From IMG/VR virus record IMGVR_UViG_3300012155_000195: a stretch of DNA of 6,759 bases; one strand, 5' to 3'. A program made the translations under genes and the position numbers. The stretch is from a virus (taxonomy: Duplodnaviria > Heunggongvirae > Uroviricota > Caudoviricetes). Position 1 is the first letter of the stretch, and each line of letters begins with the position of its first letter. The notes below the pieces were generated by a model. It was not told where the DNA came from and searched no databases. It worked only from the letters and a program-made list of their open reading frames with translations. This document shows positions 1 through 6,759 of this stretch, one piece after another.

Positions 1-249
1 AACTGCAGTCAGTGAACCGATAAGCGTAGCAAACGTCGCTGAAAACACCGCCATCGTCAATGAATGCTGAGCTGCCTGCAACAGACTGTCGTTGTTCATC
101 AGCAGGCTATACCATTTAGTGGTAAAACCCTGCCAGTTGATGCCAAAGCGCGAGCTGTTGAAAGAGTTCACAATCAAAATAATGATTGGAATATACAGGT
201 ACGCGTAGATAGCGGTCATAAAACCGCCGCGAAGCAGTCGACCGATCAT
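1..249 (-). CDS. potC: Spermidine/putrescine ABC transporter permease PotC, N-terminal 83 codons (partial, runs off window at position 1)
   Basis: Minus-strand ATG at 249-247 preceded by AAGGTGGA RBS. Translation MIGRLLRGGFMTAIYAYLYIPIIILIVNSFNSSRFGINWQGFTTKWYSLLMNNDSLLQAAQHSLTMAVFSATFATLIGSLTAV matches my recollection of E. coli PotC N-terminus; hydrophobic TM1 present. About 50% GC, unlike adjacent AT-rich DNA. Not in the supplied ORF track because it is truncated by the window edge. Confidence 0.8.
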   Translation of the reverse strand, partial: MIGRLLRGGFMTAIYAYLYIPIIILIVNSFNSSRFGINWQGFTTKWYSLLMNNDSLLQAAQHSLTMAVFSATFATLIGSLTAV

Positions 250-2526: not shown

Positions 2527-3645
2527 TTAAATAACCAATTTAACCCATTCCTGACCACGAGTATCGTTATAACGATCGGTGGTTGCCTGGACTTTATGTC
2601 CCAGTAATGTTTTTGTATCAATACCCTGCGCGCGGTACAGTCGTTCTGACAGGGAGCGTTGTTCATGAAATGTTGGCGGAGTTTTTCCTGCTGGTGGAAT
2701 TATCCCTGCCAGATCCCGTGCTTTGGCAAAGTAGTCGCTCAGGTTGTCTTTACTCATCGGCTTTGGTTGTTTCTGGTGCCGACTATGGATTAGATATGGA
2801 CTTAATATTCTGTCTCGGCACCCATCAATAACTTCTTTTAACGTTATCCCAATGGCATCACAGCGTAGTGTAAGCGGTAACGCCAGACGCATTCCGGTTT
2901 TTCCCTGGGTGATATGCAAGTGTTCGTTCCACACATCTGAAAAACGCATGTGGCAAATGTCATCACGGCGCTGACCAGTAACAATCGCAAGAAGCATTGC
3001 GTTACGGATAAAGTGTTTTTCAGGCGTTGCGTTGTAAATTTTTTGCCAGTCTTCCAGGGTGAGTCTGGCTCTGGTTACTTTAGGGATCGGTTTACGGGTA
3101 GCCTCCGGAGGATTCCATCCAGGAGGAACTTCCCCTGCATGCTGTGCTTCTTTATAAATATCAACCCATAATCCACGATTTACTCTCGCTGTGCTGACCA
3201 TGTCTTTATCCAGCCACTCATCCAGTATTAATGCAAAGTCTCTTACTTCCAGTTCTTTCAATGGGTGGTTTCCCAGACGGGAAACCAGGTATGCAGCCAT
3301 TCGGGCTTTTTCTTTGTGAGTTGTAGCTGCAATATCTCCATTTTTCAGTCGCGTGTCCTGTATTTTCAGATATCGATCAACCCATGCCTTTAATCTGATA
3401 CCCCGACGTTTTGTTGCTGACGGACTTTCATCAATTTTGCGCATGAAATATTCAGCTTCTGCTGCAGCTATTCGCTGATTGGCTGTGGAAGCGATTTTTT
3501 CTGCCTTACCTTTGTCTGTTCCGAGTCCGTGAAATTTTCCAGTCACAGGATTTTTATACTGGTAGTAAACTCTGCCAGTTCTGCGATCAAACTTTTCGTA
3601 AAGACCAGCTACGTCAGTGCTGTTTTTTCGTGGCCTCGGTGACAT
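2527..3645 (-). CDS. int: Lambda-family tyrosine integrase (site-specific recombinase), 372 aa
   Basis: Clear collinear similarity to lambda Int by recall: N-terminal arm-binding region (YYQYKNPVTGKFHGLGTDK vs lambda YCYRDPRTGKEFGLGRDR), catalytic motifs TGQRRDD (Arg), QGKTG (Lys), TFHEQRSLSERLY (His/Arg), LLGHK (His), TDRYNDTRGQEW (Tyr nucleophile). AAGGAGA RBS 9 nt upstream of the ATG at 3645. Confidence 0.95.
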   Translation of the reverse strand: MSPRPRKNSTDVAGLYEKFDRRTGRVYYQYKNPVTGKFHGLGTDKGKAEKIASTANQRIAAAEAEYFMRKIDESPSATKRRGIRLKAWVDRYLKIQDTRLKNGDIAATTHKEKARMAAYLVSRLGNHPLKELEVRDFALILDEWLDKDMVSTARVNRGLWVDIYKEAQHAGEVPPGWNPPEATRKPIPKVTRARLTLEDWQKIYNATPEKHFIRNAMLLAIVTGQRRDDICHMRFSDVWNEHLHITQGKTGMRLALPLTLRCDAIGITLKEVIDGCRDRILSPYLIHSRHQKQPKPMSKDNLSDYFAKARDLAGIIPPAGKTPPTFHEQRSLSERLYRAQGIDTKTLLGHKVQATTDRYNDTRGQEWVKLVI

Positions 3646-3883
3646 GAGTTAAAATCTCCTTCAGTGCATCATCATCGCCAGTATGAATTTCCGGCGCAAT
3701 TCCCGTTTCACCAGGTCCAACAAATACTGCTCGGCGATCTATCAGCCAACGCCCACGAATTTTTTGTGGCCTTGGAACGATGTATCCTAGTTTTCCGTAT
3801 TTCACCAGGGTAGTGTTTGTTATTGGGAGACTGAACCGTTTTGGTTTCCACTCGTCGAGCGTTATCAGGTACTGTTCGCTCAT
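3614..3883 (-). CDS. xis: Excisionase (Xis-like recombination directionality factor), 89 aa
   Basis: Immediately upstream of int and overlapping it by 32 nt, as in lambda. N-terminal MSEQYLITLDEW resembles lambda Xis MYLTLQEW. Start chosen at ATG 3883 (GGAG RBS) rather than the GTG at 3892 used by the ORF track. Confidence 0.8.
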   Translation of the reverse strand: MSEQYLITLDEWKPKRFSLPITNTTLVKYGKLGYIVPRPQKIRGRWLIDRRAVFVGPGETGIAPEIHTGDDDALKEILTHVTEATKKQH

Positions 3884-3944
3884 GGCTATCACTCCGGAAC
3901 GCGCCAGTTGCAGAATACCAACGACAACTGGCGACGGTTGAACA

Positions 3945-6410
3945 TTAAAAATCAGCCTGACTCGGGATCAGTTTTTGCCAGATAGCTGAAACGTATTTTG
4001 CCTGGTAACGGGCGTCATCAAGTGCATTGTGGCGCACCCCTTCGAACGGAATAGCCGTTCTGGCATCGAAGTCTATGGCTTTCCCCAGCTCAACGATTGT
4101 GCGTACATCGCGATCGTTGGACCAGCGCCACGGGCAGGGGATACCATGTCGCTCATATGAACGGCGTAAAATCACGTTGTCGAAGTTGGCTCCATTCCCC
4201 CAGACCCGGACAAAAAATTCACCGGAGTTTTCGTCGATAAATTCCCGCAGTTGCAGCAGTGCATCGTCTAACGGGATTTGATTTACCAAAGTTGCAGATC
4301 TGGCCTCGCTGGACTGTGCCAGCCACCATTCGATGGTGGAACCATCAGGAACAGCACCTTTGTCCATTGCGTCAACTAGGCTGATGACAACATAAAATAT
4401 TGGTCCAATTTCTCCGGTCTGCGGATCGAAAAATATTGCACCTATTGAGATGATCGGGGCATCTGGATTTTTTCCCATGGTTTCAAGGTCGATCATCAGA
4501 TGGTGCCACACCCTGCTGGTGGATGTGATTTGGTGATGACCGTTCATATTAATTAAGGGATCTGTCGCCTCGCCAGTTTCATTATCGCTGGCGTGATGCT
4601 GATTGCCGCCAGGGTTCTCCTTGTGTGGATGTTCAGCGCCTTCCATTTCCTCTGGATCATTTTCCTGAACTTCAACCTGATTCTCTTCATCGAATGTTTC
4701 CTGGTATGTTGCAGCGCCCATCACCGCGCCACAATCAGGGCAGTTGTCACCGCCGGTCTGACCGCAGGCGGTGCAGACTTTTTCCGCTTCCTGTTGCGCT
4801 ACTGGCTCAGGTTGTTTCGTTTCTGGCTCGTTTTGTAACGCATTTGGGCTGTTGTGTTTCGCTTTCTGGTCGTTCTGTTCCGTTTCTTGCTGGTTCTGGT
4901 TCACTGAATCGCGGGGGTCAATCCCCTTCACCCATTTCGGATCATTCGGGTCGCTAATCCCTGCAACAAATTCACCGCGAGAGGCAGCAAGCAACTTATC
5001 GGCGTCAGGCTGGCTGATATTGGCTGCCTGCATAATTTTGTTTACTTCGTCAGCGGTAACTTTTACCTGATTAACTGGATCTACCTGTTTCTGAGTATCC
5101 AGCGATTGCGTGTCCTGGCGATGTTCAGTTGTATCCGGTTCCATTGTTTCAGCCGTTGCCTGTTCATCTGCCATTGCGTCAGACGGTTGTGATTTTTCCT
5201 CATTATTTTTTTCTTCTTCTGTTTCGCGTTCAGCAGCCAGTTCGCGGTTAACTTCTTCCAGGATATCTTTTTCCGGTGTATGTCGTGCAGCAGCGAGAGT
5301 TTCCTCGGTAGGGTTCTCGTGATCAGTCTCTGTTAAATAGGCGTTAATATACCCCTGAAGGCGCCCCGGGTAGTGATAAAACTCAGGGTGTGCGCTTCGG
5401 ATAAGTGCAAAAATAGCGGCACGGGAATAATCCAGAATACCCGGGGTTGAGCGAAGTGCTGCGGACCATTCTTTGAACGGACTTTCTTTCTTCCGGACGA
5501 CTTCTTTTGCGCGACGATAAACGCTGCCCGGGATTTCATAAATATTAAAATCCATCGGAAGTGTGGCCGCTGCAATCTCCACATCCAGCGTATCGAGGGT
5601 GTGCACTAAATTCGGATTGCGATCGGTTTTGTTCCCGCCGCCAGCATTAGCACCGGAAGCCGTGCGGGTGATGCGTGAAACACGATTCCCCTTCATCCAC
5701 TCTTTTGTAAGCAGACCGCGATCGGTGTAGTCAGTGTCAAGGTATGCTTCGATGAAAGCAGTCATCACCCCCAGTTCTGAATTTACGGGGGCGGGAAAAA
5801 CACTGCCAGTATCCCGAACCAGTTTGTATAAATCCCGAATCTCCAGTGGCTCCAGTTGAGCTGCTTTATTTGAAATGGCACGGATTGTAACTGCAGGGAG
5901 TTCCTCATCCAGCGCACTATGTAATGCCCGAAGTTCTTCCCGTGAAACGTGCGTTACTGGTTTTTCGTTGCCGCGTTGAGCAAGCCAGCGAATGGGCAGC
6001 TCCTGACCGGAAACCGGCAGGAGCATGTTCTCCTCAATCTCTGTCATTTCTTCGCCGTTGACGTTGGTATTGTCAGTGCTGGCTGGTTTGTCCTGAACAG
6101 AGGGGGAGGGCGCGATAAGTACCATTGTGATACCATCTTCCCCGCCTTTTTCGTATCGGTTGCAGAATTCGGTATCAAACACGCCTTCCGGAGGAAGGTC
6201 ATTCACAACGGGTAAATGGACGCGAACAGGTTTTTTAAAATCCTCTTCGTCAAATCCGGCATCGTCCATTGCGACAACACCGCGTGATATTGCAACCGAT
6301 AATTTTTTTGCTGTGCGCCAGTAAAAACCGCCTTTAATCCCAAGGCGTTTTCTGACTTTGTCATTTTTGGCTTCGTAATATAGTGCAATTTCTTCTTTAT
6401 CAGTGCTCAT
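3945..6410 (-). CDS. Exodeoxyribonuclease VIII-like mosaic protein with acidic linker, zinc-ribbon-like CxxC..CxxC motif and C-terminal DnaQ-type DEDDh 3'-5' exonuclease domain, 821 aa
   Basis: Long ORF with GAGG RBS upstream of ATG 6410. C-terminal domain has Exo I MIDLETMG (D641 at 4488-4490, E643 at 4482-4484), Exo II GNGANFD (D744) and Exo III HNALDDARYQAKY (H794, D799; 4014-4031). CTACG..CPDCG at residues 546-560 (4731-4775). Glu/Asp/Gln-rich low-complexity regions around residues 360-440 and 500-620. The N-terminal ~350 aa resemble prophage exonuclease VIII (RecE-family) N-terminal regions by recollection only. Confidence 0.85.
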   Translation of the reverse strand: MSTDKEEIALYYEAKNDKVRKRLGIKGGFYWRTAKKLSVAISRGVVAMDDAGFDEEDFKKPVRVHLPVVNDLPPEGVFDTEFCNRYEKGGEDGITMVLIAPSPSVQDKPASTDNTNVNGEEMTEIEENMLLPVSGQELPIRWLAQRGNEKPVTHVSREELRALHSALDEELPAVTIRAISNKAAQLEPLEIRDLYKLVRDTGSVFPAPVNSELGVMTAFIEAYLDTDYTDRGLLTKEWMKGNRVSRITRTASGANAGGGNKTDRNPNLVHTLDTLDVEIAAATLPMDFNIYEIPGSVYRRAKEVVRKKESPFKEWSAALRSTPGILDYSRAAIFALIRSAHPEFYHYPGRLQGYINAYLTETDHENPTEETLAAARHTPEKDILEEVNRELAAERETEEEKNNEEKSQPSDAMADEQATAETMEPDTTEHRQDTQSLDTQKQVDPVNQVKVTADEVNKIMQAANISQPDADKLLAASRGEFVAGISDPNDPKWVKGIDPRDSVNQNQQETEQNDQKAKHNSPNALQNEPETKQPEPVAQQEAEKVCTACGQTGGDNCPDCGAVMGAATYQETFDEENQVEVQENDPEEMEGAEHPHKENPGGNQHHASDNETGEATDPLINMNGHHQITSTSRVWHHLMIDLETMGKNPDAPIISIGAIFFDPQTGEIGPIFYVVISLVDAMDKGAVPDGSTIEWWLAQSSEARSATLVNQIPLDDALLQLREFIDENSGEFFVRVWGNGANFDNVILRRSYERHGIPCPWRWSNDRDVRTIVELGKAIDFDARTAIPFEGVRHNALDDARYQAKYVSAIWQKLIPSQADF

Positions 6411-6500: not shown

Positions 6501-6692
6501 TTAAAGCCCTGCCGGGACTTCGTTATTATCCATGCGAATAACTTTATCGACCGGATAACAGTTACCGGGAATTTTCTGTTCCGCTGCAGCAGCCATGCAT
6601 TCTTTCATTGAGCCATATATACCAGTAACCACATCAACCGGTTCACCTGTATTAAGAAAAACTGTCAGAACGAGTGCAAATGCTGTATTCAT
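6501..6692 (-). CDS. Small hypothetical prophage protein (63 aa) with hydrophobic N-terminus
   Basis: ATG at 6692 with AAAGGA RBS 8 nt upstream. N-terminus MNTAFALVLTVFL looks like a signal peptide or membrane anchor. The ORF track extends it to 6746 but that extension lacks this support and reaches the window edge. Confidence 0.45.
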   Translation of the reverse strand: MNTAFALVLTVFLNTGEPVDVVTGIYGSMKECMAAAAEQKIPGNCYPVDKVIRMDNNEVPAGL

Positions 6693-6759
6693 TGTCAGCG
6701 TCCTTTTTGCATCAGGCGTAAACGGGCCAGCATTGAAACAATGCATATTTGATTTAATA

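Follow-up and report, generated by a model that had tools for sequence, protein, structure and literature searches.

The exonuclease gene and its domain architecture

This study examined a 6,759-nucleotide stretch of DNA, hereafter the window, from the Caudoviricetes virus record IMGVR_UViG_3300012155_000195, and in particular a gene on its minus strand encoding an 821-amino-acid (aa) protein in which a RecE-type N-terminal scaffold is joined to a C-terminal DEDDh exonuclease head. The architecture of this protein, its intact catalytic set, the fold of its head, the purifying selection acting on it, its position in the operon and the missing annealase are established by the results given below. 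The chimera of a RecE front and a DexA-like head is real, yet it had already been annotated and partly described. The parts of the gene are as follows:

3945..6410, minus strand: whole gene, RecE-type N-terminal scaffold and DEDDh 3'-5' exonuclease (open reading frame (ORF) of 821 aa, ATG start)
5301..6410, minus strand: folded part of the scaffold, aa 1-370, predicted to form an alpha/beta domain (aa 1-100) and two helical domains (aa 130-245 and aa 270-362)
5844..6245, minus strand: match to PF06630 Exonuc_VIII, the RecE N-terminal family, aa 56-189 (Pfam, E 1.4e-25)
4551..5324, minus strand: acidic low-complexity linker common to RecE, aa 363-620 (from composition and the BLASTP end point)
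4728..4775, minus strand: Cys4 motif CTACGQTGGDNCPDCG, aa 546-561 (from the sequence; RecE counterpart CNACGQTGGDNCPDCG)
3978..4505, minus strand: DEDDh exonuclease domain of the Rv2179c-like / T4 DexA family, aa 636-811 (Pfam PF16473, E 3e-68)
4488-4490, 4482-4484, 4179-4181, 4029-4031 and 4014-4016, minus strand: catalytic codons of D641, E643, D744, H794 and D799, respectively

The match to PF16473 covers the whole profile (positions 1-177 of 177) and scores 229 bits against a Pfam cut-off of 27. No Pfam match to the PDDEXK domain PF12684 was found in the 821-aa protein, and this domain was present in the two RecE proteins used as controls. The NCBIfam equivalog for exodeoxyribonuclease VIII (PRK09709) aligns with aa 1-621 only, which corresponds to positions 1-603 of its 877, and its score of 896 lies below the cut-off of 1269. 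An earlier note, made from the DNA sequence alone, had described the C-terminus as a DnaQ-like DEDDh exonuclease in place of the RecE-type PD-(D/E)XK nuclease. Both parts of this description stand: the per-domain hidden Markov model search returned the full PF16473 profile and the modelled fold is closest to DexA of phage T4, while PF12684 is missing and the similarity to RecE ends at aa 620. The residues named at the time, D641/E643, D744 and H794/D799, are numbered exactly as they occur in the sequence.

With regard to RecE, the window protein is 56% identical to the classical 866-aa K-12-type enzyme over aa 58-620, equivalent to RecE 50-591 (BLASTP). The homology ends at ...TGEATDPLI(620) in the window protein and at ...DPVI(591) in RecE, and none was detected beyond. 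In the classical RecE, PF12684 occupies aa 615-850, and recT follows the gene. The swap point thus coincides with the RecE domain boundary, at which the nuclease head is exactly exchanged, which is a new observation. The RecE of the Rac prophage, the partner of RecT, is homologous throughout the N-terminal ~620 aa, a region that takes in PF06630 as well as the Cys4 motif and the acidic linker (identity in this part is 44% for the RecE of Rac-SA53). Its gene likewise lies upstream of xis-int in the leftward operon and points the same way. In contrast, its head is a 5'-3' nuclease of the PD-(D/E)XK type (PF12684; RecE residues about 606-866), whereas the window protein carries a DEDDh 3'-5' head and lacks a recT partner. 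The Cys4 motif of aa 546-561 looks like a zinc ribbon, and its CxxC...CxxC pattern suggests that it binds zinc. A search of aa 1-620 against PDB sequences returned no match, and the folds of the N-terminal scaffold match no known fold, which is also new here.

With regard to the head, D641, E643, D744, H794 and D799 align with D7, E9, D119, H186 and D191 of T4 DexA, and among 61 aligned, diverse members of the family each of the five is either invariant or conserved to at least 90%. The Exo I (DxE), Exo II (D) and Exo III (Hx4D) motifs are all present. An AlphaFold2 model of aa 621-821 (predicted local distance difference test 94.5, predicted template modelling score 0.89) places the head in the RNase H-like DnaQ fold. 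The best PDB match of this model by Foldseek is T4 DexA (8KEL/8KEN, E 4e-11, template modelling score 0.72), and further matches include RNase T, a Cas2-DnaQ domain and oligoribonuclease (Orn/REXO2). T4 DexA belongs to the same DEDDh family and is, among solved structures, the best match in both sequence and fold; unlike the window domain, which forms the C-terminal head of an 821-aa protein, it is a stand-alone protein of 227 aa, and the two are only ~22% identical. The founder of PF16473, Rv2179c of Mycobacterium tuberculosis, whose full family profile the window domain matches, is a small stand-alone exoribonuclease of actinobacterial origin; it was not retrieved by a phmmer search against PDB sequences.

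Judged by its family, the head is very probably a Mg-dependent exonuclease that removes nucleotides from 3' ends. We infer that its substrate is DNA and not RNA, and that it acts on DNA ends, because the scaffold is common to a recombination nuclease and because DexA acts in intron homing, a double-strand-break repair process, as reported in the paper that describes the T4 DexA structure (Kang et al., NAR 2025, PMC12153337). An internal start at M639, which would free a lone head, was considered and is not supported, as no convincing Shine-Dalgarno sequence lies upstream.

The window head shares only ~81% identity with the version that is common in E. coli. Its aa 660-700 (about 4310-4430, FYVVISLVDAMDKGAVPDGSTIEWW) resemble the heads of two other proteins (P0123 and P0125) more than those of the full-length proteins most closely related to it, so that the head, too, is a mosaic.

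Exchange of modules, selection and distribution

A search with aa 621-821 against 1.84 billion representative proteins returned 11,986 related clusters, which are mostly stand-alone proteins of 180-200 aa. In ~17 of the best 150 clusters, the domain is found at the C-terminus of a 450-900-aa protein. Fourteen such proteins (13 of them long) were compared by BLASTP, and all of them share N-terminal parts with the window protein, at 25-65% identity. One of the fusions, P0122, joins a K-12-type RecE N-terminus to a DEDDh head; another protein, P0281, bears a PF12684 head on a scaffold that matches the Atlantibacter fusion P0131 at 77% identity over 76% of its length. To judge from these combinations, one scaffold carries either head type. 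The first ~270 aa are also exchangeable, as Tritos, an isolated lambdoid phage, and its relatives have a different, YdfE-like N-terminal module. The Tritos homolog, TRITO_27, is 64-74% identical to the window protein over aa 270-821 and has the same DEDDh head, but it is YdfE-like in its first ~270 aa, where the window protein resembles RecE and PF06630.

Stand-alone homologs of 186-199 aa, 52-60% identical to aa 636-820 and, unlike the window protein, devoid of a RecE-type scaffold, are encoded at five loci of other Enterobacterales genera. Those of Izhakiella and Klebsiella lie directly upstream of xis and an integrase gene, both confirmed with Pfam; in Mixta, Erwinia and Pseudocitrobacter, the downstream ORFs are xis- and int-sized only. 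The stand-alone homologs hence occupy the same xis-proximal slot as the fusion, which is new here. They start with MNHLMIDLETMG, and the fusion point of the window protein reads ...WHHLMIDLETMG. From these matching starts, it follows that nearly the whole stand-alone protein was joined to the scaffold. The surroundings differ further upstream, where the Izhakiella and Klebsiella loci contain YfdQ (DUF2303) and a YfbR-like protein, and the window prophage contains DicB and YdfD.

A few observations on these loci may be added. In the Klebsiella locus (L013), a dATP/dGTP pyrophosphohydrolase gene directly precedes the stand-alone exonuclease gene, and the matches to a YfbR-like 5'-deoxynucleotidase in L013 and in the Izhakiella locus (L016) are below the Pfam cut-off. 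In four other loci (L014, L015, L021 and L024), an ORF of 275-276 aa is followed by one of 179-221 aa at the same relative position, a similarity of ORF sizes only.

The ratio of nonsynonymous to synonymous substitution rates (dN/dS), computed against three close relatives, is 0.16-0.17 for aa 58-360, 0.25-0.29 for aa 361-620 and 0.29-0.32 for aa 621-821. Every segment of the protein is under purifying selection, with dN/dS between 0.16 and 0.32, which this study adds.

The gene is widespread. Of 5426 complete E. coli genomes, 4040 (74%) contain DNA encoding the DEDDh head, at 8092 places and up to seven times per genome, and 1263 contain the whole gene at a coverage of at least 80%. The classical RecE nuclease domain occurs in 1730 of these genomes, always with recT. 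The pair of PF06630 and PF16473 is precomputed for all 120 of the top 120 homologs, intact proteins of 805-821 aa form more than 120 clusters, and an NCBI protein named 'exonuclease [Escherichia coli]' (P0001) is 100% identical to the 821-aa protein. The fusion is also named in Escherichia marmotae, E. albertii, Atlantibacter, Enterobacter, four Citrobacter species and Salmonella. E. ruysiae encodes a full-length homolog, and several isolated phages, Tritos, HannyBb and mEp460_ev081 among them, carry the gene intact. In PHROGs, the fusion is distributed over several families labelled 'exonuclease', and the heads are annotated as 'exonuclease', '3'-5' exonuclease' or '3'-5' exoribonuclease domain-containing protein'. 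Given the database-identical protein, the presence in most E. coli genomes and the treatment of the module and of the enzyme family in two papers of 2025, the object itself is not new. It is among the commonest E. coli prophage genes, and the label 'exodeoxyribonuclease VIII', which many records bear, predicts the wrong polarity and the wrong pathway.

In the Qin prophage of K-12, IS2E interrupts the pseudogene ydfE (L047, 4079-4999), and the intQ pseudogene comes next. Sequence comparison identifies ydfE as the N-terminal remnant of a Tritos-type exonuclease variant, truncated by IS2. An origin from the window variant was considered and rejected, as ydfE matches the Tritos-type N-terminus instead. 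This truncation would explain why Kang et al. state that a DexA homolog is missing from K-12.

Operon context, missing annealase and Chi sites

The gene lies in the early-left operon of a lambdoid prophage, with the following features in and around it:

6501..6746, minus strand: DUF1482 (YdfD-like) ORF, next upstream in the early-left operon (Pfam, E 2e-21)
3614..3892, minus strand: excisionase gene, xis (Pfam Exc PF07825 at the cut-off score; PHROG 629, E 5e-26)
2527..3645, minus strand: lambda-type tyrosine integrase gene, int (PF09003 and PF00589)
4515..4522, plus strand: Chi site GCTGGTGG, antisense to the exonuclease gene, at the head/scaffold junction (TSTS codons)
2690..2697, plus strand: second Chi site, in the same orientation, inside the integrase gene

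No annealase gene was found in the window, where only the DUF1482/YdfD-like ORF lies upstream of the exonuclease gene. An E. coli contig, L034, is 99.76% identical across all 6759 window bases and extends the view by 10 kb upstream. From the repressor to int, it encodes a helix-turn-helix repressor, DUF1391, a 124-aa ORF, DicB, DUF1482, the exonuclease, xis and int; in this interval, Pfam detected no annealase, single-stranded DNA-binding protein (SSB) or RecBCD inhibitor, and none of the small ORFs is long enough to encode one. An annealase is also absent from five annotated contexts with the same gene order, namely E. coli A19, the phages vB_EcoS-640R1 (640R1) and 813R8 (whole prophage), Tritos (whole genome) and PPompW. 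The earlier note had claimed that no annealase separates the gene from xis and had left the region beyond position 6759 to be checked. The first point is borne out, as xis adjoins the gene and begins 52 nt past its stop codon, and L034 extends the absence back to the repressor. With no annealase in the window, in L034 or in the five contexts, two-component single-strand annealing of the RecET/Red type is therefore excluded for this module. The suggestion that the gene has a function other than RecET/Red recombination was right, as a negative statement which names no function.

The arrangement of the operon is shared with known elements. The order dicB-ydfD-exo is common to Qin, Tritos and PPompW, and the K-12 Qin arrangement, dicA ... 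dicF-dicB-ydfD-ydfE-intQ, follows the same layout. Tritos has the same dicB-ydfD-exo-xis-int layout, no annealase and Chi sites. In Rac-type phages, recE-recT-ralR precedes xis-int; the window gene stands in the recE slot, with recT-ralR missing. No sigma-70-like promoter was predicted directly upstream of the exonuclease gene, which fits transcription within a repressor-controlled leftward operon, and scans of the window for Rfam families, repeats, promoters and terminators revealed nothing relevant.

These properties can be compared with a survey of 325 lambdoid genomes (Zheng, Casjens, Davidson, Amundsen and Smith, Genome Res 2025, PMC12315714). In this survey, Tritos is the prototype of class B, which has a nuclease, lacks an annealase, an SSB and an anti-RecBCD protein, and contains 7-21 top-strand Chi sites; DnaQ-like nucleases are listed for lambdoid early-left operons, DnaQ-type nuclease genes are described as sporadic 'very near int', and 'RecE-2' proteins without a nuclease domain are also reported. 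The early-left operon in L034 has the composition of a Tritos-type module, in that the nuclease is present and the annealase, SSB and anti-RecBCD protein are absent; the annotated Tritos genome agrees.

The window contains two Chi sites in 6.8 kb, against 0.1 expected from shuffled sequences. Tritos has nine on the top and two on the bottom strand; the corresponding counts are 4/8 for the 813R8 prophage (32.8 kb) and 1/6 for L034 (13.9 kb). The junction Chi is located nine codons before the first methionine of the DEDDh domain and ~30 nt past the end of the RecE homology. It occurs at the same relative position in seven of seven fusion genes (the window, L001-L005 and L033), including genes with other N-terminal modules, and is absent from both recE genes checked. 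The junction Chi may favour exchange of the head-xis-int cassette; it contains three synonymous sites only, and descent could also conserve it.

Proposed role and alternative explanations

The reading that we prefer, tentatively, is that the protein processes DNA ends in conjunction with host RecA and RecBCD. It is the early-left-operon nuclease of a Qin/Tritos-type lambdoid prophage integrated next to potC, and a modular protein whose ~620-aa scaffold, shared with RecE, carries an exchangeable head, here DEDDh; the PD-(D/E)XK head of RecE feeds RecT. The gene would be transcribed from the repressor-controlled leftward promoter in lytic development, upon induction or infection. The scaffold would bring the head to linear DNA ends, and the head would trim 3' tails. 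Host exonuclease I is proposed to blunt 3' tails, which makes ends loadable by RecBCD. Tails blunted by the phage head would likewise become RecBCD-loadable ends, with recombination proper left to host RecA and, presumably, RecBCD acting with Chi. As annealase, SSB and RecBCD inhibitor are all missing and Chi sites are present, the enzyme cannot act as a strand-annealing recombinase of the RecET/Red type. With regard to the scaffold, the RecE N-terminus is stated in a review (PMC11611040) to enhance linear-linear recombination.

Several points weigh against this reading. The copy in PPompW is frameshifted and that of a Stx2a phage is broken by an insertion sequence (IS); resident prophages can lose the gene. 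The founder of PF16473, Rv2179c, is an exoribonuclease, so RNA is a possible substrate. Chi density was considered as a discriminator of the nuclease type and rejected, as the RecET phage 673R7, which lacks Gam, has five top-strand and no bottom-strand sites; Chi abundance follows the lack of a RecBCD inhibitor, not the head type. EcD, the one E. coli homolog to have been tested, is described by Kang et al. (PMC12153337) as a nuclease that defends against T4. Finally, according to Zheng et al., DnaQ-type genes near int often stand beside a separate canonical Rec module and were not counted as Rec, and 3'-5' exonucleases usually inhibit homologous recombination (PMC12315714, citing Lovett 2011). 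The Stx2a phage was also considered as a case of co-occurrence with Red/Gam; it is uninformative, its copy being IS-broken and split across the record ends.

A role of the protein as a superinfection-exclusion or defence nuclease of the HREX/EcD type, which would degrade the 5-hydroxymethylcytosine (5hmC) DNA of T-even phages and spare unmodified DNA, is rather unlikely in our estimation. DexA is the closest solved structure to the head, and an AbiL-like cassette is found nearby, outside the leftward operon. DicB, encoded in the same operon, blocks some phages, which would suit such a role. EcD ('HREX') digests 5hmC-containing T4 DNA and not unmodified double-stranded DNA, and it protects cells from T4 when borne on a plasmid, as reported by Kang et al. 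(PMC12153337). The same paper lists bacterial DexA homologs in Escherichia, Citrobacter and Klebsiella, genera that match the distribution of the prophage family, and prophages are not mentioned in it.

However, DexA W152, which is required for 5hmC recognition (PMC12153337), aligns with S764 of the window protein, with W761 and W763 nearby. DexA D169, also used in this recognition, aligns with A778, close before D780/D782, in a stretch where the gaps can be placed in more than one way. D90, a tetramer residue of DexA that is alanine in EcD, aligns with D715; A716 is adjacent, and a one-residue shift changes the match. The start of EcD, MIDTET..., as derived from the primers in the paper, suggests a stand-alone protein, whereas the window protein has a 620-aa scaffold. 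The primers for EcD (HAK9828821.1) match none of the loci compared, and a 20-mer scan of viral and metagenome contigs gave chance matches only; the EcD gene may have been a synthetic one. Moreover, the window gene is situated in a repressed leftward operon and has no predicted promoter of its own, which makes expression in a lysogen doubtful, and the evidence for EcD comes from plasmid expression only.

We consider a scavenging or turnover enzyme to be decidedly unlikely. In this case, the head would degrade oligonucleotides, DNA fragments or RNA 3' ends in lytic growth, either for nucleotide supply or for the removal of nucleic acids of the host or with a signalling role. An exoribonuclease gave the Pfam family its name, and the structural neighbours of the head include RNase T and oligoribonuclease. 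The stand-alone homologs of Izhakiella and Klebsiella lie near nucleotide-metabolism genes (YfbR-like, below the cut-off, and the pyrophosphohydrolase in Klebsiella), but such neighbours are absent from the prophage of the window, as seen in L034. This explanation also gives no role to the conserved and selected RecE-type scaffold, and temperate lambdoid phages are not known to degrade the host chromosome. A role of DexA itself in host-DNA scavenging is established, according to Kang et al. (PMC12153337) and the T4 annotation.

That the gene is a remnant in decay and without function, arisen by accidental in-frame fusion and persisting in cryptic prophages as the frameshifted or IS-disrupted copies in PPompW, the Stx2a phage and K-12 (ydfE, truncated by IS2) might suggest, is extremely improbable given dN/dS of 0.16-0.32 in all segments, more than 120 clusters of intact 805-821-aa proteins, the conserved catalytic residues and the presence of the fusion in plaque-forming phages and several genera.

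The preferred reading, DNA-end processing with host RecA and RecBCD, can be extended into a bolder and clearly speculative proposal, which in our judgement is improbable. The RecE-type N-terminus might be a general adaptor that brings interchangeable heads of opposite polarity to one and the same DNA or protein target, and the DEDDh head might be 'pro-RecBCD', the opposite of Gam, by blunting 3'-tailed ends for RecBCD and RecA in Chi-rich phages without an annealase. If this were true, the junction Chi would also promote the shuffling of head-xis-int cassettes between prophages. Apart from this proposal, the occurrence of one scaffold with either a 5'-3' or a 3'-5' head offers a way to approach the N-terminal two-thirds of RecE, still unexplained in a protein that recombineering uses widely. 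How such phages recombine and replicate is a question raised by Zheng et al. 2025 (PMC12315714).

With regard to the remainder of the window, positions 1-249 (minus strand) contain the start of host potC, which runs off the left end (alignment to L034); the prophage is therefore located directly upstream of potC-potD, like 640R1 and 813R8. Between the int stop codon and the prophage junction on the potC side lies a 2158-bp cassette of low GC content (371-2528; 29-32% against ~50%), in place of ~47 bp in the phages 640R1 and 813R8. It includes an AAA ATPase gene at 569-1804 on the plus strand (PADLOC AbiLi, E 2.6e-25) and, at 1804-2346 on the same strand, a gene for a 180-aa partner with weak matches to AbiLii and an OLD-like TOPRIM domain. 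From these matches, it resembles a pair of genes for abortive infection or defence that was inserted at the end of the prophage.

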